Of a DNA stretch of 64,000 bases, positions 18,826 through 53,832 are shown piece by piece. Below the pieces are notes generated by a model, which was given only the letters and a program-made list of their open reading frames with translations, had not been told where the DNA came from and made no database searches. Source of the DNA: an uncultured Phycisphaerae bacterium (lineage in GTDB: Bacteria > Planctomycetota > Phycisphaerae > JAAYCJ01); NCBI GenBank assembly GCA_964563935.1, contig CAZLZE010000002.1, positions 6,205-70,204 of the forward strand, read 5' to 3'. The translations under genes and the position numbers were made by a program. How positions within the stretch are numbered: position 1 is the first letter of the stretch; every line of letters begins with the position of its first letter.

Positions 18826-18836
18826 GATAGAGGACT

Positions 18837-20054: not shown

Positions 20055-20068
20055 AAGGAGTATCGACG

Positions 20069-21518: not shown

Positions 21519-21543
21519 AATATTTGGAACAACTCTTCTTCAT

Positions 21544-22167: not shown

Positions 22168-22179
22168 GCGGGCGGAATC

Positions 22180-23211: not shown

Positions 23212-23212
23212 C

Positions 23213-25694: not shown

Positions 25695-25714
25695 TAATTG
25701 TCTTTATACGGGAG

Positions 25715-29197: not shown

Positions 29198-29209
29198 GAG
29201 GCCACTCCT

Positions 29210-33919: not shown

Positions 33920-33940
33920 CTCCTTGCTCCACGAATCGTC

Positions 33941-34555
33941 CTACTGCCCCTGTTTTCCAGAAGAAACGGGCACCAGAAGACCGGCATTCAGGCGATGATA
34001 CCAGACAAGTTGGTATGCCCCCGAAAGTAGCCGCCCGTTTGGCTCCCGTTTGCTGGCGAACCCCTGATATACCCCGGGATTCCACGTGTCGTACGCGCCA
34101 TCCGTATTGTACACACGGCACTCCGTCTGGAGTCGAGCCGTGCTGACTCCCGCGGGTCCGCCGTAGACAAATCCCGAAACCATGCCGGACAGAATTGACG
34201 TATCGAACGCTCCGAAGCGAGATCCAAGCCTCCATTGTGCGTCCGCCCTGACAGGCTTGCCAAAGACAATCACCTCCAGCCCGCCTTTTGCCTTCATATC
34301 CAGCTTGTAACAGTCCTCGTCCTTAAAGTCGTTGCCGACATAGTCGCCCTTGCCGTCCGGCTGCGCGATGATCGTGAAGTGCTGAAGAATCCGGATATCG
34401 CTCATGGTACCTTCTGCGTCCGGACCGCTGCCTGCCAAGTAGAGAATCGTCGAGTAATTCGGGGACGGGATCTTTTCGCCCGGCGCCGTGGGAACACAAG
34501 CAATAAGGAACACCAAGACCGTACCCATCCATATCCTGTTTCGCATTATAGTCAT
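33941..34555 (-). CDS. Secreted hypothetical protein (paralog B)
   Basis: Signal peptide; shares LYLAGSGPD, QHFTI, QPDGKGDYV.NDF, DMKAKGGL with paralog A. Confidence 0.8.
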   Translation of the reverse strand: MTIMRNRIWMGTVLVFLIACVPTAPGEKIPSPNYSTILYLAGSGPDAEGTMSDIRILQHFTIIAQPDGKGDYVGNDFKDEDCYKLDMKAKGGLEVIVFGKPVRADAQWRLGSRFGAFDTSILSGMVSGFVYGGPAGVSTARLQTECRVYNTDGAYDTWNPGVYQGFASKREPNGRLLSGAYQLVWYHRLNAGLLVPVSSGKQGQ

Positions 34556-34594
34556 TTCCTTCCGGCGGTTAGCCATACATAGCATTATGTTTAC

Positions 34595-35842: not shown

Positions 35843-35867
35843 CTTTGGTATCCCTGAATATGCGGAC

Positions 35868-37091
35868 TTACTTCTTTTCGACTCGCGTAAGGGCTTCCAG
35901 GTACAACTTCGCCTGGTAGCAACTGCTCGTGTCCGGACATTCTTTCACGAGTAACGTCAGTGCGTTCTTCGCTTCGTCGATGTTCCCTGTCTTGATCTTG
36001 CTGTAACCGATCAAAAGTCTGGCCACGGGAACCCTCGCCGACTTCGGATAATCTTTTAGAAGACTGTCGCAACTACTCTTCATCTTCGCCATATCACCCA
36101 TCCGAAAGAAGCATTGCCCCTTCAGCAGAAGGGCTTCCGGAACAGCTTGATCAGAAAGTCCTTTGACCTCACGCACTTTCCCCATCATGTTATCGAGTTC
36201 CGAAATGGCCTTCTCATACTCCCCTGTTCCCAGTAGACACTGACACAGCTTCAGTTGATACTTGGCATAGTCCTCCACTCGCGTTGTTCGCTTGAGAATG
36301 CTCCGGTATACGTCCAGCGCCTTGTCATAGATCCCCAACCCGAAAAGTTTGTCCGCGTTTTCGATATCCCGTTCCAGGACAAACGGCACCAGATTTTTCT
36401 TACGGCGACACCATTCGAGAAATTCGGTTTTCACCGTTTCGTTTTCGCCAAGGGCGCCCTGCATTGCCTTCGCAAAGGCGACGGGATCCTCCGCGTCCTC
36501 ATGTGCCGGGTTGATGTAATCGAACGTAAATGCTCGCGGGATCGCATCCGGACGTTCCGTCACTATGTTCTTGACCGTATTGACCAATAGAGTGCGAAAA
36601 TCCTGCTTGCTCAGCTGCTGCCTGAACCTGGCTAACGTGGCAAGGTATTGAGTATATATTATCTTGTCACATATCCATCCCAGCACCCAGGCTTGTTCGG
36701 CCAGGTACAGAGTAGACGGCGTCTTGATCGCTTCCGTATACGCGGGCAATACCTTCTCGACCGGGTCTCCGGCCGCAGTCCTTGCTCTCCCCAACTCATA
36801 GTAGAGGCCGGACATCAACATTTGGCCCTGCTTTATCTGATTGGGATCAGCACCTTTCCACTCCCCACATGCCTGAATCTTCCTTTCCACATACCTCTCA
36901 GCTTCCCGGGGTTTCTGCGGGACGAGTTGCTCCGCTTCCTTAATCCATTGGTCGATCTGGCTCTTGTCCGCTATCTTCGCTGTCGGCGCCCCCGTGGAGT
37001 TGGCCGGTGGCGAGGCCAACACAGCCGATACCGTAATAAGCACGCCAATGATATATCCCGCCCTTTCGAGTACTTTGATTAGTGTCTCCAT
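35868..37091 (-). CDS. Secreted TPR protein (paralog of 34595-35842)
   Basis: Hydrophobic N-terminus; LLKDYPKS, LVKECPDT..QAKLYL. Start may be 37115. Confidence 0.8.
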   Translation of the reverse strand: METLIKVLERAGYIIGVLITVSAVLASPPANSTGAPTAKIADKSQIDQWIKEAEQLVPQKPREAERYVERKIQACGEWKGADPNQIKQGQMLMSGLYYELGRARTAAGDPVEKVLPAYTEAIKTPSTLYLAEQAWVLGWICDKIIYTQYLATLARFRQQLSKQDFRTLLVNTVKNIVTERPDAIPRAFTFDYINPAHEDAEDPVAFAKAMQGALGENETVKTEFLEWCRRKKNLVPFVLERDIENADKLFGLGIYDKALDVYRSILKRTTRVEDYAKYQLKLCQCLLGTGEYEKAISELDNMMGKVREVKGLSDQAVPEALLLKGQCFFRMGDMAKMKSSCDSLLKDYPKSARVPVARLLIGYSKIKTGNIDEAKNALTLLVKECPDTSSCYQAKLYLEALTRVEKK

Positions 37092-37114
37092 GCGTTTTCT
37101 CCGAGTGCGCAGCA

Positions 37115-39910
37115 TCAATAGATCTTGTTCTGCATCGCGTCAAGTTCCTTGTCCAAGTCTCTCGGTGCGTTCCGCAAGAGATTCCGCTTCAGCATCGGAA
37201 CCAGTCTGCCTTCTCCCACAACATCATAGTTGGAGAATCTCAGCCCCAGCCTAGCCATGCTGACGAAATTGTGCGGCATGGCCACCGTATACAACCGGTC
37301 GTTTCTAACCGCCTGAATGTTGATGCCCGCAGGCTGACTGGTCGGCGCCGCCGAATAGCTCACACCCGCCAGCACCAGCGGCGAACCGACTGTGCGACGG
37401 GCAATGTCCGTAAAAGGCGTCATTAGCATCTGCTTGAAGGTTTGTCCGTCGACCTGAATCTTCACAATCCACCGATTCTGAAAGGTATTGAAGACATCCC
37501 GCAGCGTGAGAGGACCCTCTTGTGGGACCTGGGGACTGCGAATATGGTCTTCACACACCACGGCATCTACGCCCAGTTCCGTCCGAATACTGTCCGCTGC
37601 CCATTGACGCCACTGCCACCGCGAATGCTTGCTTGTGGTATGTGCCAACACAGTATCCCAGTCACTATGCCACCGCCATGTGGTGTCAAAGCACTCCGCT
37701 ACAAACCATCTTATTTCATTGGCGGGTGTCACCTCGAAGATCCCAACGTCCGCGGGAGGCATGGATCGCAGTTGATTGAACGCCGTTGCCAACTGACCCA
37801 CCGCCTTCGCCGTCGTACCGGAAAACACAGCCACATATGTGCCACCCGCATGAAGCGGGCTGGGATAGATAAGGCAGTATCCGACGTCGCCGGAGTAAGT
37901 CTTACCGTTCGCCGTCACTTTCCCACCCTCGATCCTGACGGGCAGGTCCTTATCCACCGCCGCCAGCCATCGATTACTCTGCGACGTTCCGACCAGCACC
38001 AGATTCTGACCCGACATCGTATCGCGTGGAAACGTGACATCATCAAAGCAAGGCGCCCCGTTCGCCAAAGCCTGGGCGACGCTCTGCCCACCCTTGACAA
38101 TATCCGCGTTGCTCCCGCCCGACCCATAGACCACCACATACGGATCCGTAAACACATCCCACACCGGTCCGCTGAGCTGCGTACTCTTGATTTGCTTCGC
38201 GTCCTTGAACCGGTCCGGCTTACGCGAATAGGCCTGGGCCTGTGTGTGGGCAATCAGTCGCCCATTCTCGACAATCCTCACTGGCCGGCTCAGGTCAACC
38301 GGCGCCGTAGAGAGGTCCAGCGTATACGCATTCACATTCTCCGTCTTCACAATGACCCATGGTCCCCGAACTGAGGCGTCGATCGTCCCCTGGAAATTCT
38401 CATCCACTCGTCCGTCGATCCTCACCCAATAGGCCTTTGCCGATCTGAAGGAATCGCTCGTAAAGAACACCCTCGCAGGTCGAAGGTCGCGCACCGGACC
38501 CGCCGGCTTCGGCCTGTCACCCATACTCTCCAGCCACGTCGCAGTGTCCTCGCAATACCCAGCGAACGGTCCGAGTAGTCCACTGGCGGCATGCAGCTTG
38601 TCCGCCAGCAAACAGGACAGATCCGGTGATTCCCTCGGTCCACTGTCATTGTTGATATACATGCACTTGTGGTAGGCAAGACACTTATGGGCAAACCCGT
38701 ACCAGGCTGCCGCTTCCTGCTCCCCGTGGTGAGAGTTCTGCCAATAGCTCATCTTAAGGTTCAACGCATTTCCCGCCAGGTAGATGTGACTGTTCCCGAG
38801 ATCCAGGTTCGCTCGCATCCACTCATCCGGATAGTGAAGGGCCAGACTCATGGCGGCGGCGGAATTCCCGCAAAACCCCCAGATCTGGAACTGATCATAA
38901 TCCACATTCAACTTCTGCTGCAGAATTGACCAGAACGCCTTGTACTCTTTCCATTGCAGATTGTCGTTGGATAGCGTATGCCACCACACATCAATCATCC
39001 CGGGATGCGCACCGTTCCCCCACCAGTCATTACTCACACCGTAGTTGCTTGCCCCTACACGCGCAGGGTCGATATGTATGTACACAGGCCACTTCCGCGA
39101 AGGATCATAGTCCGCAGGCACCCGAACGACAAATTCCGATATTGGACCGCCCGCAAAACGCCGCAGCACACACTTGTTCAATCCGCCCACAACCAGATCA
39201 GGACACTTCTTCTCATACTCCCGTCTGGCCACTACCGCATTCCCCAGACCTTTCAGGATTCTCCCCGACGCGAACGGCGTCTTCTCGATCAACCCCAGGA
39301 CATGATCGACATGCGAAACCGCCACCGATGCAAAAATCCACTGCTCATCCTTCTTCTGCTCAATCGCGTTCTTCAGTTCCTGGCAATACCCCACCAGGTC
39401 CTTTTTCCAGCCGCGGCACACAATCACATAGACGGCATACGACTCCACGTCCTTCTCATTGGCTGGGACCGGAGTCAATACCAGGCGAAATAATCCCTCG
39501 GAAGGCAGACCCGACTGGAGGGTGAGTCCCTGGGGCCTCTGAACAAGTGTCTCCTTTCCCGCATCCTGCCATTTGCCGGCCACCCGCTGAGACATCACGC
39601 ATGCCACCTGCTCCTGGTCGCTGCTCGGATGATCCTCCGGCAGACGAACGAGGACTGGCTCCTTGGGTTCAAGAATATAGGCAACATCATGGATATACTG
39701 GTCTTCAATAGGATTGTCTTTGGACAGCTTTCGTTCCGGATCCACGACCAGCTTGAAGCCAAACAGCCGCTTCTCAACCGCCTTTTCTCCGATAATCTCC
39801 CAAGGCAGACTGTAGGCCATGGCAGCTGTGTTCGCCAGACCGCTCGTTACGGCAAGGAAAAGACAAATCACTATGCAGACCGCCAGTGTTCGCCACATCT
39901 TATCTGACAT
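37115..39910 (-). CDS. Large secreted alpha/beta-hydrolase-like protein with 5'-nucleotidase-C-like C-terminal domain
   Basis: VRVPADYDPSRKWPVYI, WGFCGNS elbow; domain shared with 39939-41600; AADSIR..GVDAV..GPLTLRDVF..FQN. Confidence 0.65.
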   Translation of the reverse strand: MSDKMWRTLAVCIVICLFLAVTSGLANTAAMAYSLPWEIIGEKAVEKRLFGFKLVVDPERKLSKDNPIEDQYIHDVAYILEPKEPVLVRLPEDHPSSDQEQVACVMSQRVAGKWQDAGKETLVQRPQGLTLQSGLPSEGLFRLVLTPVPANEKDVESYAVYVIVCRGWKKDLVGYCQELKNAIEQKKDEQWIFASVAVSHVDHVLGLIEKTPFASGRILKGLGNAVVARREYEKKCPDLVVGGLNKCVLRRFAGGPISEFVVRVPADYDPSRKWPVYIHIDPARVGASNYGVSNDWWGNGAHPGMIDVWWHTLSNDNLQWKEYKAFWSILQQKLNVDYDQFQIWGFCGNSAAAMSLALHYPDEWMRANLDLGNSHIYLAGNALNLKMSYWQNSHHGEQEAAAWYGFAHKCLAYHKCMYINNDSGPRESPDLSCLLADKLHAASGLLGPFAGYCEDTATWLESMGDRPKPAGPVRDLRPARVFFTSDSFRSAKAYWVRIDGRVDENFQGTIDASVRGPWVIVKTENVNAYTLDLSTAPVDLSRPVRIVENGRLIAHTQAQAYSRKPDRFKDAKQIKSTQLSGPVWDVFTDPYVVVYGSGGSNADIVKGGQSVAQALANGAPCFDDVTFPRDTMSGQNLVLVGTSQSNRWLAAVDKDLPVRIEGGKVTANGKTYSGDVGYCLIYPSPLHAGGTYVAVFSGTTAKAVGQLATAFNQLRSMPPADVGIFEVTPANEIRWFVAECFDTTWRWHSDWDTVLAHTTSKHSRWQWRQWAADSIRTELGVDAVVCEDHIRSPQVPQEGPLTLRDVFNTFQNRWIVKIQVDGQTFKQMLMTPFTDIARRTVGSPLVLAGVSYSAAPTSQPAGINIQAVRNDRLYTVAMPHNFVSMARLGLRFSNYDVVGEGRLVPMLKRNLLRNAPRDLDKELDAMQNKIY

Positions 39911-39938
39911 TATCCTCCTGCACCGTTGTCATCGTTTC

Positions 39939-41600
39939 CTATGGTTTGGCGTTATTGACCACCCCATCGTTAAACGACATCTTATCGGGATGCTTCGCTT
40001 GTCCTGGATTGGCCGGAGCCAGCCATTCCCAATGACTCCCAAAGAGCGCTTTCATCCGCCATGTGATCTGACCTGTCGGCGCATCAAGATCGAAAATACC
40101 CGCATCCATTTTCCTTGGACAGGCGTCGAACGCCGGCCAGATCTGACCGAACGAGTTTACGCTCTCCGGCGAATTCCCGCTGATCACCATAACATATCGG
40201 TCCGGATTCTTCGGGTTCGGGTAGATCAGAACAAACCCCAGTTTCACCCCCCCATACTCTCGCCCATTCGCAACGAGCCTTCCATTGACCCACCGGATCG
40301 GCAGCTTGCCCGATATTTCCCGCAGCAACGTGTTGCTCTCCGCGTCACCAACCAGGACGATATTGCTCTCCTGAATATCTTTCGCTGTCACTTCCGTGTC
40401 CTTCACGATCCTGTACCCCATGGCCGGCATCCACCCCGGCTTCACAAACGATTGAGCGCATTCAAGAGCCGCTTCAATCATTTTCCCGTCTTTCGATACC
40501 GCGGGGCGAACCAGAAGGCATGGCTGGCTGTAGATGTCCCATATCGGTCCGCACAGCCCCCGCTTCTTCCGCACCCCGCTGTCCAGCTTTCTCACAAACA
40601 TCGCTTTTTCGTTAAGCAACCCCCTGTGAATCCTGACCCCGTTTTCGATAATCCCAACATCCTTGGATAGATCGATAAGGTCCCTGTTTAGAACCAGCCG
40701 ATAATTGGAGACGTTGTTCGTACTAACATAGACGGTCTGCCCATCGATACGAGCATCGATCGTGGCCGGTTGACCATAACGGGCGATTTCTAGAATCCAC
40801 ACCCAGTACGCATGATCGCTGTTCAGGTCACGAGTGGTAAAATGAACCCACTTTGGATTTACCGTTCGTCGTTGTTCCGTCAGCCACGCTTCGACTTTGT
40901 CCCACTCAATTCCGAAACTGTGTCCCATATCCGGGTGTTCGGTGTACCGCCAATCGCTGATCCCACATTCGAGAGCCTTTTCATAGATACTCTTCGACAG
41001 CTTCGCCGGCAAAATATCGTCCTTCCCTCCCGCGTTAATCCAGAAGGCAATATTCTCCGCGTTCTTGATCAGTGCCTCATCATCCCATTTGCCGCATACG
41101 GGAATGCATCCCGCCCATACATCCGGATGCCGGAACGCGAGCTTGAAGGTCCCGCATCCACCCATGGAAAAACCGCACAGAAAAATACGATCTACGTCGA
41201 CGCTAAACATTCTCTTGGCCAGATCGATACACTCGAAGACATCCTGGGCACCCACACCGTCATACCAAATGGACCCTCTCCCCGATGGCCCGATCTGAAT
41301 CACACCATCGATGTCCGGGGCCAGGATCGGACCGTCGTTGTATCCGTGGAGCGTCACGAGAAGCGGATATTTCTTGGCTGGATCATATTTCCTGGGCAAC
41401 CGGATGAGGCAGGGCTGCATCGTTCCGTCAATCTTGCTCTTTACGGACATACCGAAGGTCTTTCCACCGGGAAATCGGACGCCCCTCAATTCATCGGAGG
41501 CCTGCATCGCCTGCCCTTCGGCTTCTCCGCCAATCCTTACGCACAGCGGATCGTTTGACAGCAGCACAATCACTGACAATATCACCATTCTCAATCGCAT
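39939..41600 (-). CDS. Secreted esterase/peptidase (prolyl-oligopeptidase-like)
   Basis: RLPRKYDPAKKYPLLVTLHG, RIFLCGFSMGG, GGKDD, HPDMGH. Confidence 0.82.
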   Translation of the reverse strand: MRLRMVILSVIVLLSNDPLCVRIGGEAEGQAMQASDELRGVRFPGGKTFGMSVKSKIDGTMQPCLIRLPRKYDPAKKYPLLVTLHGYNDGPILAPDIDGVIQIGPSGRGSIWYDGVGAQDVFECIDLAKRMFSVDVDRIFLCGFSMGGCGTFKLAFRHPDVWAGCIPVCGKWDDEALIKNAENIAFWINAGGKDDILPAKLSKSIYEKALECGISDWRYTEHPDMGHSFGIEWDKVEAWLTEQRRTVNPKWVHFTTRDLNSDHAYWVWILEIARYGQPATIDARIDGQTVYVSTNNVSNYRLVLNRDLIDLSKDVGIIENGVRIHRGLLNEKAMFVRKLDSGVRKKRGLCGPIWDIYSQPCLLVRPAVSKDGKMIEAALECAQSFVKPGWMPAMGYRIVKDTEVTAKDIQESNIVLVGDAESNTLLREISGKLPIRWVNGRLVANGREYGGVKLGFVLIYPNPKNPDRYVMVISGNSPESVNSFGQIWPAFDACPRKMDAGIFDLDAPTGQITWRMKALFGSHWEWLAPANPGQAKHPDKMSFNDGVVNNAKP

Positions 41601-41602
41601 GC

Positions 41603-42601
41603 TCAGGTTCCCTTCAGTTCATGGAACAGTACCGTTCTCGATTCACCGTTTATCACAAAACTGCTCGATAATCGTGCGATAACCCGCCCGCCCATCCGAC
41701 GGACCACCCGCCGCTTCACGCCGTCGCATTCCAGCACTGCGCATAGAAGCTTCTTGAAACCTGACCGACTCGCCTGCTCGATATGCTCACTCACCAGCCG
41801 GTCCGTATCATCCAGACATTCGTCGCGAACGAAGAAATCCAGCCGTCCGACCTGGGTCTCACCATGCGGATACACCTTTTGCGTCTGAGCGATCCCGACA
41901 ACAGTTTCCTCCCGATCCGCCAGGACCGACGCGCACCCGCCATCCCTCTCTATCCGGCCCATCATCTCCGGAAATACAGTCAGAAACCGCGTGGGCGGTG
42001 CATATCGGCTCGAAACGATCCCGTTGACCAGATCAAACGTGTGCATTGCCGACGGATGAATCGATAGAAGTGATGTCGAAACAAAGTCACCCCAATCCAG
42101 CGCTCGAACCTCCGTTCGTCCCGGATTCTCCTCGGAGAACTTACAGATCGCCTCCTCCGGCTCGAGCATCCGTCGCATAACGATCCCCCGGTGTTCATCA
42201 AAACCCATTTTCTGATACAAGCCCACGGCCGGGTTCTCTCGATTCACGCCCAGGTAAATTGCACGACAGCCTCGCGCCGTCAGGTATTCGATAGACTCGC
42301 GGATCAGCTTCTGCCCGATCCCCTGGTGGCGGTACCGCTCCTCGACCACAATGGGTCCCAGAATCGCGTTCCGCGGAAAGATCCTGTGGTAAAGAACTGC
42401 GGCCGCTCCCACAATCCGGTGTCCCGCTTTGGCCAAAATGAACGTCCCGCCAAGCCGAGGAGATAATCTTCCCAACAGCACAGAGCGGAGGCTGTAGTTC
42501 GCGTACTCCAGTGTCTTGAGGTATACTCTCTCAATCTCCCACACCATATCGGGACTCACGGGGGCTGATACATTGACAATCTTCATGCTGCCGATATCCA
42601 T
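41603..42601 (-). CDS. GNAT-family acyltransferase
   Basis: IVVEERYRHQGIGQKL, NPAVGLYQKMGF. Confidence 0.85.
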   Translation of the reverse strand: MDIGSMKIVNVSAPVSPDMVWEIERVYLKTLEYANYSLRSVLLGRLSPRLGGTFILAKAGHRIVGAAAVLYHRIFPRNAILGPIVVEERYRHQGIGQKLIRESIEYLTARGCRAIYLGVNRENPAVGLYQKMGFDEHRGIVMRRMLEPEEAICKFSEENPGRTEVRALDWGDFVSTSLLSIHPSAMHTFDLVNGIVSSRYAPPTRFLTVFPEMMGRIERDGGCASVLADREETVVGIAQTQKVYPHGETQVGRLDFFVRDECLDDTDRLVSEHIEQASRSGFKKLLCAVLECDGVKRRVVRRMGGRVIARLSSSFVINGESRTVLFHELKGT

Positions 42602-42608
42602 TGCGCCG

Positions 42609-43913
42609 TCATTGCGTCCACTTGGTCAGAACACCGCTTAATGCCGTCATCTCCCTGGTGAAGTCCTTGGAGTGAATTTCGTACTGCTCGTCCGGGTCTT
42701 TCGCCCGATCGAAGATGACCGGTTTACGCCCCTTCTCCTTATAACATGTCAAACGCGTCGTCCTCACGGCCCAACTATCCGCCACGGCCCCGCCGGTATA
42801 CTCCGTCCATACATACTCATGCACACGATCCGCCTTCCCCTCCATGATCGGCTTCAAGCCCACCCCGGCGCATTGCGCCGGCTTCTTGATGTTCGCATAC
42901 TCCAGCACCGTGGGCAGAATGTCCACCGTGCTCACCAAAGCGTCACTCTTCTTCGTATAGCCCTTGCGATCCGGCACGCGTATCAACATGGGCACGTGCA
43001 CCAATTCCTCATGGACCCCGTGATGGCTCGTGTGACCGTGTTCGTAAAACTGCTCCCCATGATCTCCCACGATGATCACGATCGATCGTTCCAGCAGTCC
43101 TTCACCTCGTAGGAAACCGAGCAATTCCCCCAGGTCCTTGTCCGTCTGTCGCACTTCGCCATCGTACAAAGCAATCATATGTTCGATGTCCCGCTGCCCC
43201 GGTGGATTACTGAACAGCGGTTCACGGGATACACTGACACCGTTCATCTGACCCTTATAGTCCGGATCAAAGAGCCGATCATAGGGCGCAGGCGGCAGGT
43301 AGTCCCAGTGACTGTCGTAATAATGAACGAACATGAAAAATGGCGATTTGCGGTTCTTGCTCAGCCACTTCATGGCCGCTTCATTGACCAGGTCGTTCGT
43401 CCGATTCTTGTTGATGTCCGCGGAAACGCCCGAAATCGCACTTAGCATGACCTGAACACTGAAATCGTCGTAGAATTCAAATCCTTGATTGAAACCATGG
43501 GCACAATCCACCCGGGGACCGCAGCAAAACCCCGCACAACGGAACCCCTTGTCACGAAGGATCTCCGCCAACGTGGTGAAACGCCCATCCAGAGAATGGT
43601 CAATGTGCGTCACCTTGTGATCCCTGGGAAACCGGGAGGTAAAGATCGACGCGTGACTCGGCATGGTCCAGCCCGAGGTTGCGTACGCCCGGGTGAATAG
43701 CGTGCCTTCCTGTGCAAACTTGTCGAACTCCGGCGTCGTCGCACGCCCATAGCCTAGGCAACTGACATGGTCGGCTCGCAGGCTGCTGATCGTGACCAAC
43801 ACAACGTTCAGCGGAGGCTCACTGCCAACCGATGTCCGCTCCGCCAACGCACACGTGCCTGATAACACAACAGCCGGCCAACACACACAAAATACAGTTG
43901 CTTTGATATTCAT
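42609..43913 (-). CDS. Sulfatase-like hydrolase/transferase (alkaline phosphatase superfamily)
   Basis: NVVLVTISSLRADH, WTMPSHASIFT, FFMFVHYYDSH, YDGEV, GDHGE, HVPMLI. Confidence 0.88.
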   Translation of the reverse strand: MNIKATVFCVCWPAVVLSGTCALAERTSVGSEPPLNVVLVTISSLRADHVSCLGYGRATTPEFDKFAQEGTLFTRAYATSGWTMPSHASIFTSRFPRDHKVTHIDHSLDGRFTTLAEILRDKGFRCAGFCCGPRVDCAHGFNQGFEFYDDFSVQVMLSAISGVSADINKNRTNDLVNEAAMKWLSKNRKSPFFMFVHYYDSHWDYLPPAPYDRLFDPDYKGQMNGVSVSREPLFSNPPGQRDIEHMIALYDGEVRQTDKDLGELLGFLRGEGLLERSIVIIVGDHGEQFYEHGHTSHHGVHEELVHVPMLIRVPDRKGYTKKSDALVSTVDILPTVLEYANIKKPAQCAGVGLKPIMEGKADRVHEYVWTEYTGGAVADSWAVRTTRLTCYKEKGRKPVIFDRAKDPDEQYEIHSKDFTREMTALSGVLTKWTQ

Positions 43914-43935
43914 TGATCATTCCCGCGCAATCGAC

Positions 43936-45300
43936 TTATCCTGCCCGTTTGATACCCGCCAATCGACTCATGATTCTCTTGGCCTGCTCCGCGCTCTTGG
44001 TCTGCGGAAATTTCTCCGCAATCGCCGCCAGCAGCTCGTTCGCTTGCTGATAGTCCTGATTGGCCAGACTGTCCATCGCCTGCGAGAACAAAATCGGAGC
44101 AACAATCGGGTTATCGCCATACTGACTTACCATCGTCTTCTCCAGAACCGCCAGATTCGCGGGTTTGTCTCTCTTCTTGCGAAGCGCCCACCACTTGACG
44201 AAGAGTAACTGCGCCCGGTAGGACTGTGCCGCCTTCTTGCCCAGCGCCGTGTCGATATCGGTCAGAACGGCGTCCGCATTTCCACTATTCGCCAGCGACG
44301 TGTAATACGACTGGATCGCCCGTCCCGTCTCCGCATGCGCCGGGAATTCCGTCGCGATCTTCTTCGCTTGCGAGGCAGCAAGAGCGTAGTTCCCCGCATC
44401 CCACCATACCTGATATATCCGGAATTGAAGTTTCACTCGATCATCAATCTTATCGGCGGGAACACTCACTAACGCCCTATTCAGGCATTCCACAGCCGTA
44501 CTGGCCGAACTGCCCGCGCATTTCCCGGCGGCAGTCTCGTAGAACTCCCGTTCACTGAACGGTTTCTTCTGGCTCTCGCAGGCATACCGTGCCACCGCCA
44601 TCGCCTGGAACGGTAATCCGAAATGCAGCAGACACGAATCGGAAAGACTATTCAGTTCCTCCGCTTGCCTCAACCATTTCGGCAAGATACTCACGTTCAC
44701 GCCTCGATCGCCCTGGGCATGAAGCAGCGGGAGCACCAGGACATAATCGTGAGTCCCCTTGAACCCCGCATCGGCTACAGCCAACGCCAGACCCGCTTTG
44801 CCGATTTTCGTCGTCATGCCCCGCAATTGAAAATCGTAGTACTTCGCCAGAAATTCCCGCTCTTCCACCGGTAGATTCTGTATACGAATCGGAATACCAA
44901 ACACTTTCACCGCGGTCTCGTAAAACTCCTTGGCCGGCGCAACCATAATGGGCTTGGCCTGCCGTCTCTCCAGAATGTCGCTGCCCGCGTTAACGATCCT
45001 CCCTTGCGTGGCCTTCCTCAGTTGCGACACCATCTGGTTCGCCAGAAACTCGGAGGCCAGAAGCTTGGATTTCAGCGTCCGGAAACCTTCCTCGCCCGCG
45101 TATTTCCCGCTCAATTCCTCGAACAGACCATCCCCCAGGCGTTGTGCAGTCGGCTCATCCTCGGCAGACAATGCCTTCTGGAACTGCACATACCCATTCT
45201 CCGTCCGAACCTCCCTGGTTGTCGGTAGCGGGTCGGCTCCCAACCCAACCGATACCAACGTCAAAACGCACACTAATGCATACCGCGACATCGTTCCCAT
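43936..45300 (-). CDS. Secreted TPR protein
   Basis: Signal MGTMSRYALVCVLTLVSVGLGA; ATEFPAHAE, AEKFPQTKSAEQA. Confidence 0.75.
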   Translation of the reverse strand: MGTMSRYALVCVLTLVSVGLGADPLPTTREVRTENGYVQFQKALSAEDEPTAQRLGDGLFEELSGKYAGEEGFRTLKSKLLASEFLANQMVSQLRKATQGRIVNAGSDILERRQAKPIMVAPAKEFYETAVKVFGIPIRIQNLPVEEREFLAKYYDFQLRGMTTKIGKAGLALAVADAGFKGTHDYVLVLPLLHAQGDRGVNVSILPKWLRQAEELNSLSDSCLLHFGLPFQAMAVARYACESQKKPFSEREFYETAAGKCAGSSASTAVECLNRALVSVPADKIDDRVKLQFRIYQVWWDAGNYALAASQAKKIATEFPAHAETGRAIQSYYTSLANSGNADAVLTDIDTALGKKAAQSYRAQLLFVKWWALRKKRDKPANLAVLEKTMVSQYGDNPIVAPILFSQAMDSLANQDYQQANELLAAIAEKFPQTKSAEQAKRIMSRLAGIKRAG

Positions 45301-45310
45301 GAGCTGACTC

Positions 45311-46561
45311 CTATTTCCTATCCTCTTCTTCGTAACCGCCCTGCTTTTCCAACGTGTCGAGATTCCGTTCCACCGCCTCCGTAATCTTTGCGATATGCGG
45401 ATTCTGCGGAACAGTGGCCACCTGGCGCACCTGCTGCAAAGCCGAACGATATCTGCCCTGCTCCCCAAGGGTAATCGCGTGCTGAATCCTCGCGTACGCC
45501 CCCACATCCATGAAGTCCCCCGCCTTCGCGCCTCCCGACACCTGCACCTGGCTGCTATCACACACGCTGGCCAACACCCGTCGGCTCTCTTCCGCCTTTC
45601 CCATCGCGTCAAGCAAAATTGCATATGCGTATCCGATGACCCCCGCGTACCTGCTTCGACAGCCTTCCTCACACAACGCCTTCAGATCACCAGCCAGCTC
45701 TGTCGCCAATATCTTCTTTTCCCTCACGTATCCCAGGACCTTCGCCGGTACAATCGAGATGCCCATCGAACAATCCACGGGCAACTGATTCTTCTCCGCA
45801 AACGCAACGCACGCCCGCTCCAACTTCACCAAGGGCCATCGTGCATACTCCCGATGATTCCGCAAGATGGCGTCAGTGTGCTCCTGATACCTCTTCCGCT
45901 CGCCCCGCGCCCAGTACAATCCGGCTGCCCGATCACGAGCCAATGGAAGATATTCCCTCAACGGCCCGTTTGCCGCATATGTCGACAGAAATGTGATAAT
46001 GCCCTCATACTCCGTCAACGCGGATTGATCATCCTTACGGGCCTCAAAAGTCTCTGCCCGCGCAAACTTGGCTGAACATTCGACGAACTGCAGGGCCGCC
46101 GCATTCTCTCGCGTATTTTCGCGATTCCCTTCGACCGCTCGGATCGCTTCGCTGAATGCGTCAAGGCATCGCTGGCTGTCGCCCATCAGGCGGTAAATCT
46201 GACCAGCCATATTCAGTGCAAACACTTTTTCCATGATCGGGCATGCTTCTTTGGAGGCCAGGGTCTTGAATTCCTTCAGCGCCCCCGCAAAGTCGCCGGC
46301 CTTAAACTGCAGCACGCCAATACCGTACTGAATTCGATCTGCCTTCACCGGCTCTTTGCATGCTAACGCACGTTTTCGTAGAATGCTGATCTCGCGCTCA
46401 TGGTCCACCGCGGGCGTCCTCATCTCGCTGCCTGCTGGCCCGTCACACCCTTTGCCGCAACTGTATTCGCCGTAAGCAGCCGCCCCAAGAGCAAGCCAGA
46501 CCACGAGAATCCTCGCACACCACGCTCCGCTATCGAAGTTTGCGCACTTTGGGATAACCAT
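45311..46561 (-). CDS. Secreted TPR protein
   Basis: Signal-like N-terminus; YGIGVLQFKAGDFAGALKEF and further helical repeats. Start 46561 is uncertain. Confidence 0.72.
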   Translation of the reverse strand: MVIPKCANFDSGAWCARILVVWLALGAAAYGEYSCGKGCDGPAGSEMRTPAVDHEREISILRKRALACKEPVKADRIQYGIGVLQFKAGDFAGALKEFKTLASKEACPIMEKVFALNMAGQIYRLMGDSQRCLDAFSEAIRAVEGNRENTRENAAALQFVECSAKFARAETFEARKDDQSALTEYEGIITFLSTYAANGPLREYLPLARDRAAGLYWARGERKRYQEHTDAILRNHREYARWPLVKLERACVAFAEKNQLPVDCSMGISIVPAKVLGYVREKKILATELAGDLKALCEEGCRSRYAGVIGYAYAILLDAMGKAEESRRVLASVCDSSQVQVSGGAKAGDFMDVGAYARIQHAITLGEQGRYRSALQQVRQVATVPQNPHIAKITEAVERNLDTLEKQGGYEEEDRK

Positions 46562-47126
46562 ATCGAATCCTTGTTGAAGAAAATGTCCTGACTCCAAGAG
46601 TACTCTCCCATCGATCATCACCCGAAGCGGCCCCGACGGCTCTTCCATCACTCCCCACCCACATCCCCCGGATGGACCCCTGCGTCTCGCTCAAAATGGC
46701 CTCCAGCGAGTTCTCCCACGATCCTCCTCGCTTGGGCAGATCAAACTCGAACGCCTCAAATTGCGAAAGATTGTATGGAAACTCCCATTTCCACCCGTTG
46801 AAGATCGTCAAGGGCAGACTCGCTTCATATAGAGGCCACACATATTCCGCCAGTATCCGGCCCACGCCGCTTATACATGCTTTTGTCTTCTCATGATTCA
46901 CGCTCGCCGGGATGAGACATTTGTACTGATTGCCGCAGCGATCCCGACAGGCGCGATTGATGACCGGTCCCACTTTGTCGACGGGCACCCAGACCTGAAC
47001 CGTTTCTATCTCGATCGGCGCTATCACAAACGTCTCCAGCGCGGGATCCTTGCCCTGCCCCACGTCCCCCGCCAGCGTGATCGAAACCACACCAAGGATC
47101 ATCACACCCACAATAACGTATTTCAT
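46530..47126 (-). CDS. Secreted hypothetical protein
   Basis: Signal peptide MKYVIVGVMILGVVSITLA; 4 Cys. Confidence 0.7.
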   Translation of the reverse strand: MKYVIVGVMILGVVSITLAGDVGQGKDPALETFVIAPIEIETVQVWVPVDKVGPVINRACRDRCGNQYKCLIPASVNHEKTKACISGVGRILAEYVWPLYEASLPLTIFNGWKWEFPYNLSQFEAFEFDLPKRGGSWENSLEAILSETQGSIRGMWVGSDGRAVGAASGDDRWESTLGVRTFSSTRIRYGYPKVRKLR

Positions 47127-49044: not shown

Positions 49045-49752
49045 TCATCCCAGCAGCACGTTCAGTTCTTTTACACCCATGATCTCCGTGGAGGCAAACG
49101 GCTCCCCATATTGGGTCCCGATACACTGTCCATAGAATCTGCACAGGACAGTTACATAGTCGATGAACTTCGGGGTATGGTCCGGGTTTCTTAAGTACAA
49201 TTGACTTTGGTACGCGCGTATGGCCTTGATCTTGGTCGCCCATGTCTCGGTAACGTCGATAATGAACGTCGGCTGAACATGGCGTATCTTGTTCGGCGAA
49301 TAGTAGCAGTACTGACGCGGCACCCAGTGCGGACTTCCCCGCATCTTTGTCTTGTGGAGCTTCGCCTCGAAGCGCGACGCGTCAACCAGACCGTGGGCCG
49401 CGGCATGATCCGGATGGTAGTCTCCGTCAATCGGACCAAACAGGACGTTTGGCGCATACTCTCGAATGACTTCCGCCAGCCGTCGCCGCTCTTTCAGATG
49501 CGTCGTAAGACGCCGATTCGGCATGTTCAGGCACATACGTTGCCTGAGGCCAAGGACCTCGCTGGCCGCATGCGATTCTTTCTTCCGTATGGCTTTTGAT
49601 CCGAACGGTGTGGGCTCCCCGTCGGTCAGATCAATCACTACCACGTCCCACTTGCTCGCGATCATCTTCGCGATCGTCCCTCCCATCATAATCTCCGCAT
49701 CGTCCGGATGAGTAGCGATTATCATTGCTCTTGGCACAGTGTCCCTTTCCAT
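49045..49752 (-). CDS. bshB1: PIG-L family de-N-acetylase, BshB1-like
   Basis: THPDDAEIMMGGTI, DLTDGEPTPFGS, DYHPDH, YGEPF. Confidence 0.85.
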   Translation of the reverse strand: MERDTVPRAMIIATHPDDAEIMMGGTIAKMIASKWDVVVIDLTDGEPTPFGSKAIRKKESHAASEVLGLRQRMCLNMPNRRLTTHLKERRRLAEVIREYAPNVLFGPIDGDYHPDHAAAHGLVDASRFEAKLHKTKMRGSPHWVPRQYCYYSPNKIRHVQPTFIIDVTETWATKIKAIRAYQSQLYLRNPDHTPKFIDYVTVLCRFYGQCIGTQYGEPFASTEIMGVKELNVLLG

Positions 49753-51319
49753 AACCGTTTTCCTCTGTTGCGACCCGATCGAGTATTGCTCTCGGAAACA
49801 GGCCGAAGAAATACTCCCGACACATATGAACCACCTGCGATTTCCTCGCCCCCTCCAGTCGACGAATATCCGCCTTCATCGCGTCGTATTTCTCCCGCAC
49901 CGCTTCAAAAAGCGCCCGGTTCCTCGCCTTCAGCAGATTCCACGCGTCCCTCCGTTCCTGCCTGCTTATCCCACGGTCGGACGCAACGGTCGTCAACCGC
50001 CGCTTCTCCCCTATCATTGACCGGTACGGCTCCATTCCTCGCCACGCCAAGTCCATATACTTCTCCGGGCTGTGCGGAATGTTGTGAATCCGGTACTTCG
50101 CATCCGCAATCGAACCCTCGCACAAGTGCGCGTCCGAAAATGGCAGACGGATGGTCGATGTCGCCACGCCAAAATCTGTGGATGCGACACGATAATACTC
50201 ACTCAGCAAAGAGTCCGTTATCCTCTCATACACCGCTCCTCCAACCCCGTGAATGAACCAGTCTGCCAGGTACAGCCGTGCAAAAAGTGTCAGAGTCACC
50301 GCCTTCGGACGCAAACACACCCTCGCCTCGGCGAGAATGGCACGCAACTGCTCAACTCGTGCCCCCTCGCTGCCTGCGTCGATTGCACCAATCGGCCTGC
50401 CTTCCGCAAAAATGTCCGCCCTCGTCTCGCCGCTGCGTCGGACAAACACATTCTCCCGCCCTTGCTCAGCCATGCCGGCCCAGAATGGGATTTCAATGTG
50501 GTCACCCTTCCGATCCAGAGGACGGACGACAATCGCTTCAGATCTCGGGTCCGCGCACAAACATTCGCGTACCCCCCTGTTATACGAATCGTAGAACCGT
50601 TCGGCATCGGACATGATCGCAAGGACAAATCGTAGAAAAGCATTTGTCGCGGAGAGATGTGAAACGGGCAGGTACAACATATCGAGCCCAAGCGCTCGGT
50701 TCAACCAGGCCTGGATGCCTGCGATCAATTCGGCAACGTTACGATAACCGTCCGCCCCCATCGACCATCGCTCGGTACACTCCTCCCAAATGCTCATTGG
50801 AAGATGACCGCGGATCGCTTCAAACACCTGCTCGCGAAACGCCTCCATGCGATGTTTCCGCGGCACAACCCGTAGCTCAAGTGGACGTGGGTCCGGCACA
50901 TCCTCCAAACGGGCTGTTTCAAATTCCCAGCAGCCATCCGGATTCCGCCGAGGCAGAAGCATGGACGTGTCCTTGACGTCATGGTCCAGCACCAGGTGAA
51001 TCACCTGCCCATTGACCTTGTCCGCCAGCTTCCGCGCCACAACATTTTTGACCCAGACACCGCAATGGTGCCAAATTGCCTGGTGTCCCGTCACAACGAT
51101 GTTGTCCGGCGGCTCGTCGAAGCCGACCCTCTCCACTGTCTTTGAAAATGCAGCCGCCGTCCGCCACAGTTCCCTCCGGGCTTCCCGGCGATCCGGCAGA
51201 CCGTCCAATCTCACCCGATTCTCCGCCAGCAACCCCGGCCATCGGGTGAAATCCGGATATACGTGAATTACGTCCCGCTCCTCAGGAACGCACAAATGTG
51301 ACATCGTCTTGATCTGCAT
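49631..51319 (-). CDS. BshC-like putative ligase
   Basis: VVTGHQAIWHHCGVWVKN..LA....LVLDHD resembles the BshC N-terminal motif; FIHGVGGAVYE; next to bshB1. Confidence 0.55.
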   Translation of the reverse strand: MQIKTMSHLCVPEERDVIHVYPDFTRWPGLLAENRVRLDGLPDRREARRELWRTAAAFSKTVERVGFDEPPDNIVVTGHQAIWHHCGVWVKNVVARKLADKVNGQVIHLVLDHDVKDTSMLLPRRNPDGCWEFETARLEDVPDPRPLELRVVPRKHRMEAFREQVFEAIRGHLPMSIWEECTERWSMGADGYRNVAELIAGIQAWLNRALGLDMLYLPVSHLSATNAFLRFVLAIMSDAERFYDSYNRGVRECLCADPRSEAIVVRPLDRKGDHIEIPFWAGMAEQGRENVFVRRSGETRADIFAEGRPIGAIDAGSEGARVEQLRAILAEARVCLRPKAVTLTLFARLYLADWFIHGVGGAVYERITDSLLSEYYRVASTDFGVATSTIRLPFSDAHLCEGSIADAKYRIHNIPHSPEKYMDLAWRGMEPYRSMIGEKRRLTTVASDRGISRQERRDAWNLLKARNRALFEAVREKYDAMKADIRRLEGARKSQVVHMCREYFFGLFPRAILDRVATEENGYGKGHCAKSNDNRYSSGRCGDYDGRDDREDDREQVGRGSD

Positions 51320-52028
51320 GGACGCTCAGTTCTCTCCGAAGAATGGTCAGATAGTACTTCCACCGCTCCGTCGCGTCCTCCAATACACCCTTGAAGTTCC
51401 TCCCGGGATCATGGTATATCAAAGGAACGGCAATTTCCCGTATCCGAAGACCCGCCAGGCTCGCCTTCACCCAGAACTGCAAGGGAAAACCATACCCTTC
51501 TTCCGTAAGCTCCAGCGAAACGACACTCCGCGTCCGATAGGCCTTGAAACCGCAAAAACTGTCCGTCAACTGAAGTCTCAGCCATTTGTTCACCAACTCC
51601 GTCATCTGGCGGTTGATCTCGCGACGTTCACGGGGGGGCGGAAGCCCAGCCTGACTGCTCCCCGACAAATATCGCGAGCCACTGATGATGTCGGCATCAT
51701 CCCGCTCGATTTCCATACTGAACCTGCTGAGGAAGGATGGCTCGTGCTGGTGATCGCAATCCATGGTGATCACCCAGTCATAACCATTCGTATCGGCATA
51801 AGCAAACCCATCGATCAGCGCCCGGCCGTAACCCAGGTTGCGGTCGTGGGACAACACACGAATACCATCCTCCCGCTTTAGTACATCCGCAGTACCGTCC
51901 ACGCTCCCGTCATCCACAACGAGAATGTCCTGTGACGACTTGCGAACCTCTCGCAGGACATCCCGGACATATGGCCGTTCATTGTAGACCGGTATTACGA
52001 TCAACACTCGATGATTCGCCTTGATCAT
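51282..52028 (-). CDS. Glycosyltransferase family 2 (polyprenol-phosphate sugar synthase-like)
   Basis: VIPVYNE, VVDDGSVDGT, NLGYGRAL, MDCDHQH, SGSRY, TDSFCGFKAY. Confidence 0.9.
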   Translation of the reverse strand: MIKANHRVLIVIPVYNERPYVRDVLREVRKSSQDILVVDDGSVDGTADVLKREDGIRVLSHDRNLGYGRALIDGFAYADTNGYDWVITMDCDHQHEPSFLSRFSMEIERDDADIISGSRYLSGSSQAGLPPPRERREINRQMTELVNKWLRLQLTDSFCGFKAYRTRSVVSLELTEEGYGFPLQFWVKASLAGLRIREIAVPLIYHDPGRNFKGVLEDATERWKYYLTILRRELSVHADQDDVTFVRS

Positions 52029-52049: not shown

Positions 52050-53423
52050 TCACTGCACCGCATGTGGACCCGCCAATCCCGTCGTCGCCCCACCCTCCCG
52101 GGATCGACCAGGTGAGATGACCATCCTGTACTTGCCGCTTTTCTCCGGAATAATCTCCGCCACTGACTGAAATGAAATCCTCACTCGGTTTCCCAGCCGC
52201 GATCCCAACCTCGTCGCTATCACCGTCTCAATCGCATCAACCGCGCAGTCCGGCTCACGAACATATCGGACAACCAGACTCAAATCGGGCTCTTGAACGA
52301 TCTGAAACTGCCGGACACCCGGGTGATAGACCAGGCTCTTAAGTTCATGCCATGGCACATCCGAACCGTCCGACATGCGAATATCCTCACCCGTTCGCCC
52401 GACGATTTCCGCTATCAGTGGAAGCTTGCACCCACACCCGCACTCCCCCTTCCTGACCCTCGCCAGATCTCCGTTCTTGTACCGGATGATCGGCATGGCA
52501 AACCGGTTCAGATTCGTTATCACCACTTCACCGATCTGTCCGTCAGGAACCGGCTGACCGTCACGAACGATCTCCACGATAACGTTGTCCGCGTTGACGT
52601 GATAGCCCTCGCCCCGCAAACATTGCCAGGCAATATCGCCGCCCTCATTGCATCCGTAAATGTCCGCAACCCGCGTCCCCAGGGCCTGCTCGATTCGCTG
52701 CCTTTCCTCCACCTGCAGCGTGGCCCCGGTGGTCATTGCCAGAAACGGTCGGAATGAAGACACCACACCATCCCTGACCAAACACGCCAGCTTGGCGACG
52801 GCCGGCGCTATTCCAATGAGTACCGCTCCATTCAATGCGCCCAGAACCTTCGACATGTAAGTGAGATTCTCAGAAGACATGTTGTATGGATTGACGTAGT
52901 ACGTCTTATGTATCCCCTGCGCAAACGTCCAATGAGGCACTCTGTTCCATTCGTCACTCGGGGTCTTTAGCGGCGTAACGATAGGCCTGCCCCAAAAGCC
53001 GATTCCCAGGGCATGACGGTACCGAATCACCGCCGCCGAGTTCTGGACCCGTGATCGCATGTCCGACAGTACGCACACCGGAACCCCGGTACTCCCCGAC
53101 GTCCGCGTCACCCGGCAAGCCGGTATCGTCGGCCCCAACAATTCCCAAAAACGTGTCCGGATATCGTCTTTCGTCAGAAATGGAAGCTTCGCCAGATCCT
53201 CCAACCGCCGGATGTGATCCGGCATCACACCACTGCTGTCGAACCTCTCCCGATAGTACTTGCAGTGGCTGTAGACGTAACCGACAAGACGCCTCAAACG
53301 TCGCAACTGCGTCCTCGCCAACAGATCCGCATCACACTGCCTTCTAATGGCCTGCCCCGCGCTCCACATAACGCGGACCGGAAAGACAAGCTTCGTCAGA
53401 AATTCCTCATATTCCATACACAT
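52050..53423 (-). CDS. Phenylacetate-CoA-ligase / CapK-family adenylating enzyme
   Basis: LPFLTKDDIR, RTSGSTG, YGCNEGG, MPIIRYKNGDL, IVGRTGE, SGKYR. RBS GAGGAG before 53423. Confidence 0.88.
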   Translation of the reverse strand: MCMEYEEFLTKLVFPVRVMWSAGQAIRRQCDADLLARTQLRRLRRLVGYVYSHCKYYRERFDSSGVMPDHIRRLEDLAKLPFLTKDDIRTRFWELLGPTIPACRVTRTSGSTGVPVCVLSDMRSRVQNSAAVIRYRHALGIGFWGRPIVTPLKTPSDEWNRVPHWTFAQGIHKTYYVNPYNMSSENLTYMSKVLGALNGAVLIGIAPAVAKLACLVRDGVVSSFRPFLAMTTGATLQVEERQRIEQALGTRVADIYGCNEGGDIAWQCLRGEGYHVNADNVIVEIVRDGQPVPDGQIGEVVITNLNRFAMPIIRYKNGDLARVRKGECGCGCKLPLIAEIVGRTGEDIRMSDGSDVPWHELKSLVYHPGVRQFQIVQEPDLSLVVRYVREPDCAVDAIETVIATRLGSRLGNRVRISFQSVAEIIPEKSGKYRMVISPGRSREGGATTGLAGPHAVQ

Positions 53424-53442
53424 ACGGCTCCGCTCCTCGCCC

Positions 53443-53832
53443 TCACTCCCACTCGTCTCCGACTGCCAACCTTCGCCGCAGCTTCGCCAACCCGCGGGCC
53501 AGACGATCTCGCATGGCATAATACGAACATCCCGCAATCCGAGCGGCCTGAGTCGCCGGAATCCCCTCAATCAGTATGATCTCCACCGATTGACGTTCGT
53601 CCCTTGGCAGCCGGTCCAGCGTACCATTGACCAATTCCCTCAGTTCCCGACGATACGATTCCTCCGACGGACAGGATGAGAAGTCCACATCGCCTGCACG
53701 AATCCGATCCACGACAGGTACCTGCGCAAAAACCTCTCGCTTCCTCTGATGCCTGCGATCTTCAGGCAGCACATTCGCCGCTTCCTCAAAAACCATAACA
53801 TCACAAATCGCTTGCGTCTTGACGTGTTCCAT
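53443..53832 (-). CDS. Sigma70 region-4-type HTH protein (short, ECF-like)
   Basis: LDRLPRDERQSV..ILIEG..ATQAARIAGCSYYAMRDRLARGLAKLR; only 129 aa, with an in-frame TAG four codons upstream. Confidence 0.7.
   Translation of the reverse strand: MEHVKTQAICDVMVFEEAANVLPEDRRHQRKREVFAQVPVVDRIRAGDVDFSSCPSEESYRRELRELVNGTLDRLPRDERQSVEIILIEGIPATQAARIAGCSYYAMRDRLARGLAKLRRRLAVGDEWE

Follow-up and report, generated by a model that had tools for sequence, protein, structure and literature searches.

The closest described counterparts of the genes reported here belong to the bacillithiol (BSH) pathway of Bacillus subtilis and other bacteria, which comprises the glycosyltransferase BshA (family GT4, GT-B fold), the N-deacetylase BshB1 and the ligase BshC, and to the mycothiol pathway (MshA, MshB, MshC and MshD). 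The enzyme described in the literature as reducing bacillithiol disulfide is YpdA (PMC7278568, PMC8113031), and the activation of cysteine by BshC has not been reconstituted according to reviews from 2015 and 2018 (PMC4360819, PMC5790435). Here we analyse a stretch of 64,000 nucleotides (in the following, the window; positions 6,205 to 70,204 of contig CAZLZE010000002.1, GenBank assembly GCA_964563935.1) from an uncultured Phycisphaerae bacterium of the Planctomycetota. It carries three genes (Table 1) that code for a GT2 glycosyltransferase, a protein of 562 amino acids (aa) with predicted BshC fold and a BshB1-type deacetylase. An earlier sequence-only reading had noticed that they form one overlapping run, and the coordinates of the open reading frames (ORFs) confirm this, with overlaps of 38 nucleotides (nt) between the GT2 gene and the 562-aa ORF and of 122 nt between the latter and the deacetylase gene. 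The trio probably makes a protective molecule related to bacillithiol that nobody has isolated yet.

On balance, we favour the reading that this molecule is an undescribed bacillithiol analogue, which would arise by transfer of N-acetylglucosamine (GlcNAc) to a small anionic acceptor, removal of the acetyl group and addition of cysteine. The three enzymes would constitute a complete cytoplasmic pathway parallel to BSH synthesis, with a different molecule as its product. In the first step, the GT2 would move GlcNAc from UDP-GlcNAc to a soluble anionic acceptor, for example a phosphate monoester or a hydroxy acid, the linkage being probably inverting and beta, whereas the GT4 enzyme BshA makes an alpha linkage. 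In the second step, the deacetylase, a BshB1-type zinc enzyme by family assignment, would take off the N-acetyl group of this presumed substrate. In the third step, the BshC-fold enzyme, with its HIGH-like motif (His-x-Gly), would activate an amino acid (cysteine being the likeliest) and link it as an amide to the free amine. The resulting Cys-GlcN-X would be the low-molecular-weight thiol used by many Planctomycetota, anammox-type genomes among them, and by environmental Coriobacteriia. The sugar donor and its acceptor, the linkage, the amino acid and the role of this pathway are our inference.

Distribution of the three genes and of the bacillithiol pathway

The neighbourhoods of ligase relatives were compared in two sets, the best 80 loci from GTDB and the best 80 from metagenomes. 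Where at least 1.8 kb of upstream sequence was present, the GT2 gene was found directly upstream of the ligase gene in 56/69 GTDB loci and 49/50 metagenome loci, an adjacency far above chance. The deacetylase gene was adjacent in 0/80 GTDB loci and in 28/80 metagenome loci, 14 of these 80 showing the order of the window (GT2-ligase-deacetylase) and another 14 the order GT2-deacetylase-ligase; the latter includes loci whose ligases group with proteins of Coriobacteriia.

At the level of whole genomes, a phylum draw of 301 genomes was used. The ligase was carried by 54 genomes other than that of the host, and exclusion of two with fragmentary matches left 52 module genomes, which were set against 28 genomes without the ligase (24 from the phylum draw and 4 family relatives) in a panel of 80. 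The GT2 subfamily was present in 51/52 module genomes and 0/28 others, 50 of the 51 carriers being listed with a single copy and none with more at that threshold. The module-type deacetylase likewise occurred in 51/52 versus 0/28, scoring at least 219 bits against its subfamily profile in the former and at most 202 bits in the 28 others. Both genomes with a missing gene have fragmented assemblies, with completeness of 91% and 86%. In most genomes the module genes are single-copy, often scattered and housekeeping-like; in one family of 13 genomes, labelled anammox-type because of their size, their GC content and named Brocadiaceae loci, they are scattered, yet all three are present. The GT2, the ligase and the deacetylase are three co-inherited enzyme families and form one module.

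As had been observed from the sequence, BshA is absent from the trio. Moreover, no canonical bshA was found over cut-off anywhere in the host genome (94% complete), where the best of 33 GT4 matches reached 181.1 of the 273.7 bits of TIGR03999, and no canonical BshC was found there with TIGR03998 or with a profile of ten canonical BshC sequences of the phylum. Across the panel, BshA over cut-off occurred in 0/52 module genomes versus 11/28 others; the same 11 genomes match canonical BshC (5 over cut-off), and one module genome gave a 22-bit fragment match to it. GshB over cut-off was found in 0/53 module genomes (lower matches in 4). A sample drawn separately from the class comprised 201 genomes, of which 128 had the module GT2 and 8 had BshA; the latter was found in 2/128 module genomes versus 6/73 others. 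The module and the BshA/BshC pair are near-exclusive. The module works in the manner of the bacillithiol pathway without belonging to it, because it lacks BshA and its ligase is not captured by the family models of BshC.

The sequence-only reading had offered a variant thiol pathway as one of two branches, with the GT4 enzymes across the divergent promoter as possible substitutes for BshA. The variant pathway stands as the branch best supported by our data, but the substitute would be the GT2, because its presence matches that of the BshC-like gene one to one. The three GT4 proteins across the gap were rejected in this role, as they score 62-141 bits for BshA, under the cut-off, and recur in just 3-4/80 related loci, while the GT2 separates the two groups of genomes as given above.

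The predicted ligase, deacetylase and glycosyltransferase

The 562-aa ORF matched nothing in Pfam, NCBIfam or PDB sequences, either as a single sequence or as a profile, and the TIGR03998 and Pfam BshC models gave no match to it. Its family counts 2706 representatives at E<=0.001, with named members that are annotated as "hypothetical proteins" in Planctomycetota and Coriobacteriia. The best fold match of a model built from 149 sequences (pLDDT 91) was BshC of B. subtilis (4wbd; Foldseek E 8.4e-10), with Z 25.6, 451 residues aligned, a root-mean-square deviation of 5.5 and 10% identity, followed by class I lysyl-tRNA synthetase (LysRS; Z 19.2) and MshC (Z 10.4). Profile-profile comparison of the family with canonical BshC gave E 2.1e-5 over 413 columns (probability 76.8), and an Atlas model of the family had a TM-score of 0.60 to a BshC cluster. 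Judged from the model, the BshC fold on which the sequence-only reading depended is present in the large ORF, with a Rossmann core like that of class I aminoacyl-tRNA synthetases, connecting peptides and a helical arm.

The invariant or near-invariant residues of the ligase family (G78-H79-Q80, H85-x-G87, K91, D112-x-D114, R348, F355-x-H357-G358-x-G360, Y364 and R501) lie in motifs that align with those of BshC, with substitutions. His85-x-Gly87 falls at the position of the HIGH motif in the cysteinyl-tRNA synthetases (CysRS) of these genomes, and His357-Gly358 resembles the CysRS motif His-Gly-Gly-Gly, where BshC has Gly-Pro-x-Glu. In MshC and CysRS, a cysteine before the HIGH motif and residues of a Phe-Pro-His-His motif are zinc ligands; a motif of the latter type was not found in the ligase family. 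The last approximately 40 residues of the host protein are of low confidence and read through into the next gene, the tail past the last conserved motif being 62 aa long against a median of 26 in 135 relatives. A predicted complex of GT2 and ligase scored 0.05.

Several deviating forms of the ligase were seen as well. One ORF (L124:771-3113, P0079) fuses GT2 and ligase, with a degenerate GT2 half, and may be a frameshift or an assembly artefact. In five genomes from two families of the class (G001, G040, G156, G217 and G245; loci L208-L212), a shortened (430-490 aa) and faster-evolving ligase stands beside a normal GT2. Archaeal Atlas clusters, most commonly of Nitrososphaerota, are structurally between the ligase family and canonical BshC (TM-score 0.66-0.69; PF10079 in 14-49%).

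The deacetylase passes the BshB1 model TIGR04001 (185.2 bits versus a cut-off of 182.5), and its nearest solved structure is BshB1 of B. subtilis (6p2t, E 2.9e-33). The metal motif H15-D17-D18 with H116, as well as R56, is invariant in 25/25 sequences; the zinc motif and Arg53, the equivalent of R56, are among the BshB residues named in PMC4101496. The equivalent of Arg109 is absent, which was ruled out as a sign of a new aglycone, since 6/7 canonical BshB1 enzymes of the phylum have lost it as well. About 15 module genomes, mostly of one family (L273-L282, e.g. L274:4649-5395), possess a second module-type deacetylase paralog (183-206 bits) with an altered motif before the third zinc ligand, which recalls the BshB1/BshB2 pair. 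No recurrent thiol or lipid genes were found beside this paralog or beside unlinked deacetylase and GT2 genes.

The GT2 falls in the clade of dolichyl-phosphate mannose synthase (DPMS) and polyprenyl-phosphate glycosyltransferases, within which it belongs to a tight subfamily specific to the module. It scores under the cut-offs of the NCBIfam models for polyprenyl-phosphate glycosyltransferases (PpgS, the best, 102 of 370 bits; ArnC 44 of 529; AglJ 65 of 325). The nearest folds of its model (pLDDT 93) are DPMS (Z 24.0), ArnC (20.2), MpgS (19.8), GpgS (19.1) and MGS (18.6). The GT-A motifs DxD-x-Q-H and S-R-Y are kept in the family, with D90, D92, Q94, S116-G117 and R119 invariant, Arg119 being the equivalent of Arg117 in PfDPMS. 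Two further invariant residues, Arg135 and Asn139, have the spacing of Arg131 and Ser135, which bind the acceptor phosphate in DPMS (PMC12992685), and are presumably equivalent to them, although the pairwise alignment is shifted by two residues at this place. At the position of the mannose-binding Lys178 the family has Gly or Ala, and its C-terminus shows a conserved Tyr/Arg/Phe motif.

No transmembrane (TM) segment was found in 115/116 members of the GT2 family (1/116 above threshold). The membrane-facing helix IF1 holds at least two aromatic residues in 7/67 family members versus 16/17 DPM-like paralogs of the phylum, and at least two acidic residues in 54/67 versus 2/17; 10/27 paralogs were dropped from this scoring as the segment could not be excised, and the acceptors of the paralogs are assumed. 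Because IF1 is rich in acids and lacks aromatics, we read the acceptor as small, soluble and anionic. UDP-GlcNAc is the likely donor since the partner enzyme is an N-deacetylase, and inversion would be expected because the DPMS mechanism inverts, as described for DPMS-type GT2s (PMC12992685). In three genomes of one genus (G338:C1:701116-701808, G353:C19 and G379:C1), and in G012 and G250, the match to the module GT2 contains an in-frame TGA; selenocysteine or read-through is possible, the family having invariant or near-invariant cysteines. The invariant Cys159 and Lys162 were set aside as a special feature of the GT2, as a similar motif occurs in dolichyl-phosphate glucose synthases.

The second branch of the sequence-only reading was a lipid-linked route, in which polyprenyl-P-GlcNAc arises through the GT2, its amine is set free by the deacetylase, and this amine is then acylated by the BshC-like enzyme for transfer of the product to a surface glycan or lipid. 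The retained GT-A motifs and the nearest structures, DPMS and ArnC, would fit such a route, and the missing TM segment proves nothing, since TM-less DPM-like paralogs exist. Among the 26 nearest loci examined, the trio runs into a GT4-GT4-GT4-MurJ-Wzy series in 3 and lies directly behind the secretin of type II secretion in 16. Within single clades, GT28/MGDG-synthase-like (8/80) and PAP2 (9/80) genes were found in GTDB loci, and PlsY-like (10/80) and YegS-like (8/80) genes, mostly on the opposite strand, in metagenome loci. However, the acidic IF1 has lost its aromatics, the genes are single-copy, housekeeping-like and often scattered, and a surface role leaves the exclusion with BshA/BshC unexplained. 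No recurrent GT-C transferase or flippase was found among the annotated neighbour clusters (a genome-wide search was not made), the sole GT87 gene seen, in L141, being on the opposite strand. With the CapK and GT4 context proving local (see below), the lipid-linked branch is weakened even with DPMS still the nearest solved relative of the GT2, and we regard it as decidedly unlikely.

Thiol or other product

The evidence for a thiol is indirect. A YpdA-like reductase was found in the class sample in 34/126 module-only genomes (from five families), 4/6 BshA-only genomes, 2/2 genomes with both and 1/67 with neither. Its best model is YpdA, far over thioredoxin reductase, and within the class the YpdA-like proteins of module genomes score the same as those of BshA genomes. 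In G088, the YpdA-like gene lies 1.9 kb from the module deacetylase gene. Moreover, in 8 loci of the Coriobacteriia type the trio is directly preceded by an OsmC-family gene with two conserved cysteines.

A number of observations weigh against a thiol, or against the pathway as we propose it. Every YpdA-like match is under the family cut-off (228-332 versus 339.9 bits), 25 of the 34 module-only genomes with the gene belong to one family, it is absent from 92/126 module-only genomes and none was found in the host genome; oxygen lifestyle could be a confounder of the whole pattern. BrxA/B and BrxC were found in 0/5 module genomes tested, all with a YpdA-like gene, and the 8 OsmC loci seem to come from a single clade. 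In the ligase family, Thr, Ser or Ala stands in the place of the zinc-thiolate cysteine found before the HIGH motif of CysRS and MshC, and no cysteine is conserved (no Cys column above 41%), so that the ligase sequence cannot name the amino acid. The GT2 has as its closest solved relative a user of lipid phosphate, and the mean hydropathy of IF1 overlaps the range of the paralogs and separates the groups poorly. Two module genomes of one genus (G422 C84, C90; G443 C81, C16) hold the GT2 and the BshC-like ligase beside a BshA over cut-off, canonical BshC being absent. Finally, kin are not independent in any of the co-occurrence counts, although the pattern spans many families.

Part of this evidence would also fit the same three soluble steps with an amino acid other than cysteine, or some different acyl group, added by the ligase; the product would then be a non-thiol aminoacyl-glucosaminide that acts as a compatible solute, a cofactor or a signalling molecule. 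The ligase is 10-13% identical to BshC and its active-site motifs are altered (His for Gln in the first, His-Gly-x-Gly-Gly without the Glu of BshC in the second), its second-best fold is that of class I LysRS, and the missing bacilliredoxins and the many module-only genomes that lack the YpdA-like gene point in the same direction. On the other hand, the near-exclusive distribution against BshA/BshC fits a functional replacement of BSH, and the YpdA-like gene tracks either pathway, with the single occurrence among 67 genomes where neither was found. A non-thiol product of this kind is in our view unlikely.

The module might also make BSH itself or its beta anomer, with the GT2 as a non-homologous BshA acting on L-malate, or with a GT4 elsewhere supplying GlcNAc-malate. 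The deacetylase score over the BshB1 equivalog cut-off is consistent with this, as are the equal YpdA-like scores, the two genomes that pair BshA with the BshC-like gene, and the closeness in fold of the GT-A enzymes MGS, GpgS and MpgS, which glycosylate small hydroxy acids. However, each of the three enzymes forms its own subfamily with its own invariant residues, which suggests a different substrate, GT2s of the DPMS type invert (PMC12992685) and the best GT4 of the host stays at 181 of 273.7 bits, so that we consider BSH a very improbable product.

For the bacillithiol analogue that we favour, a more specific proposal can be made with slightly less than even confidence, namely a new class of sugar-based thiol, a beta-linked Cys-GlcN (possibly via a phosphodiester) with an aglycone other than malate or inositol, acting as the principal redox buffer in a large part of the Planctomycetota (anammox bacteria included) and in environmental Coriobacteriia; the ligase would be an ATP-using branch of the BshC family with a His-containing HIGH-like motif that could be reconstituted. 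The breadth of the module, found in 128/201 genomes of the class sample and in 16/16 and 13/13 tested genomes of two other families, means that, if the analogue reading is right, many members of a phylum important for nitrogen and carbon cycling would have a redox thiol of their own, made by these three genes. The ligase family would in addition offer a second, very divergent entry to the question of how BshC activates cysteine. No description of the module was found in the literature on BshC, bacillithiol and planctomycete or anammox thiols, a coverage that mostly left out subscription journals. Their supplementary genome lists aside, surveys of thiol genes in genomes count BshA/B/C orthologs by sequence (PMC6282198, PMC12719100), and such surveys would miss the module because its ligase belongs to an unannotated family of "hypothetical proteins" with thousands of sequences.

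The locus and its relation to known systems

Table 1. Features of the window around the three module genes
Feature	Position	Strand	Remarks
GT2	51282-52028	minus	PF00535; soluble, 248 aa; proposed first enzyme (BshA replacement)
BshC-fold protein (predicted), unannotated family	49631-51319	minus	562-aa ORF; proposed amide-forming ligase
BshB1-type (PIG-L/LmbE) zinc deacetylase	49045-49752	minus	TIGR04001; proposed second enzyme
CapK/PaaK-type adenylate-forming ligase	52050-53570, likely start 53423	minus	directly upstream of GT2
ABC-2 ATPase and permease	downstream of deacetylase	minus	
Three GT4 genes, MurJ and Wzy-like gene	from 54043	opposite to trio	
Type II secretion cluster	17086-28057	plus	E, F, pseudopilins, K, secretin
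Two related esterase-like proteins	37115-39910, 39939-41600	minus	

On the minus strand, the order of transcription is CapK/PaaK-type ligase, GT2, 562-aa ORF, deacetylase and ABC-2 ATPase/permease. The trio indeed lies downstream of the CapK-type gene, with 21 nt between the end of the latter and the GT2 gene on the same strand. The view that it sits inside a glycan operon did not hold, since the GT4, MurJ and Wzy-like genes are on the other strand, a CapK gene was found near the trio in 0/80 GTDB and 0/80 metagenome loci and the GT4a-b-c-MurJ run in just 3/80 metagenome loci. With 0/160 loci, CapK was ruled out as a member of the module, and so was the downstream ABC-2 transporter, for which there were just general ABC matches in 9/80 and 3/80 loci and none for the permease.

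In the nearest relatives (36-40% identity), a single strand carries orthologs of the type II secretion genes of the window, ending with the secretin, then the GT2, ligase and deacetylase genes, and after them variable genes (GT4-GT4-GT4-MurJ in 3/26 loci). The secretin (25715-28057) and the first GT4 of the window are still oriented in this way, while the block between them (28.1-54.0 kb, trio included) is reversed. Because of this reversal relative to the nearest relatives, the "divergent promoter" and the CapK neighbour are the outcome of a local inversion or insertion and incidental to the module. The ligase was not found in the six other genomes of the host's order (70-97% complete), and neither the GT2 nor the large GT4 was found in four tested genomes of this order; the composition of the block is mildly atypical (72nd-97th percentile). 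From this patchy presence and atypical composition it follows that the trio-bearing block was probably acquired laterally in the host genome.

Some further genes of the reversed block, all on the minus strand, deserve mention. A short ORF (53443-53832) codes for a sigma-70 region 4 domain alone, overlaps the annotated start of the CapK ORF at the inferred rearrangement junction and is possibly a remnant. The run from 33320 to 47126 holds mostly unannotated secreted-looking and TPR proteins, a sulfatase, a GNAT and the two esterase-like proteins, and several of its genes have orthologs near the trio in loci L126, L128, L133 and L142; two short ORFs in it (33320-33919 and 33941-34585) look like paralogs. 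At the other end of the block (28436-33323) are an SDR, an AMP-binding enzyme, a DUF1796 protein and two unannotated ORFs. In Phycisphaerae, the rhomboid, DUF1844 and aminotransferase IV genes downstream of the module look like clade synteny.

Compared with known systems, the module shares with the bacillithiol pathway the combination of a glycosyltransferase, an N-deacetylase and a predicted BshC-fold ligase, a deacetylase that passes TIGR04001, the modelled BshC fold over 451 residues and, in some carriers, a YpdA-like reductase. It differs in its first enzyme, a GT2 of GT-A fold where BshA is a GT4 of GT-B fold, and in its ligase, which is 10-13% identical to BshC and missed by the TIGR03998 and Pfam BshC models; in the ligase, the first His of the HIGH-like motif and a CysRS-like His-Gly motif are retained, and the Glu of BshC is lacking. 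The two systems almost never occur in the same genome. Mycothiol synthesis likewise proceeds by GlcNAc transfer, deacetylation and aminoacylation by an enzyme of class I synthetase fold, and the HIGH-like and His-Gly-x-Gly motifs of the module ligase resemble those of the CysRS of these genomes. However, MshC reaches just Z 10.4 to the ligase model and its pre-HIGH cysteine is not retained, the deacetylase scores 39 of 224 bits for MshB, and no conserved acetyltransferase or phosphatase neighbour was found in the module loci.

PfDPMS (5mlz), ArnC and PpgS are closest to the GT2 in sequence and fold, which retains the metal/donor motif and the arginine of S-R-Y and has an invariant Arg-x3-Asn spaced as the phosphate-binding Arg131/Ser135 of PfDPMS. 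Unlike them, the GT2 has no TM segment, a polar and acidic IF1, Gly/Ala in the place of Lys178 and its own C-terminal Tyr/Arg/Phe motif, and a membrane transferase partner was not found among its neighbours. The glucosyl-3-phosphoglycerate, mannosyl-3-phosphoglycerate and mannosylglycerate synthases GpgS, MpgS and MGS (7p5l, 3f1y and 2bo4) are retaining hexosyltransferases for compatible solutes; they are 12-18% identical to the GT2 and work without deacetylase or ligase partners, but resemble it as GT-A enzymes with Z 18.6-19.8 to its model, and their small, soluble and anionic acceptors are of the kind that we propose for the module.

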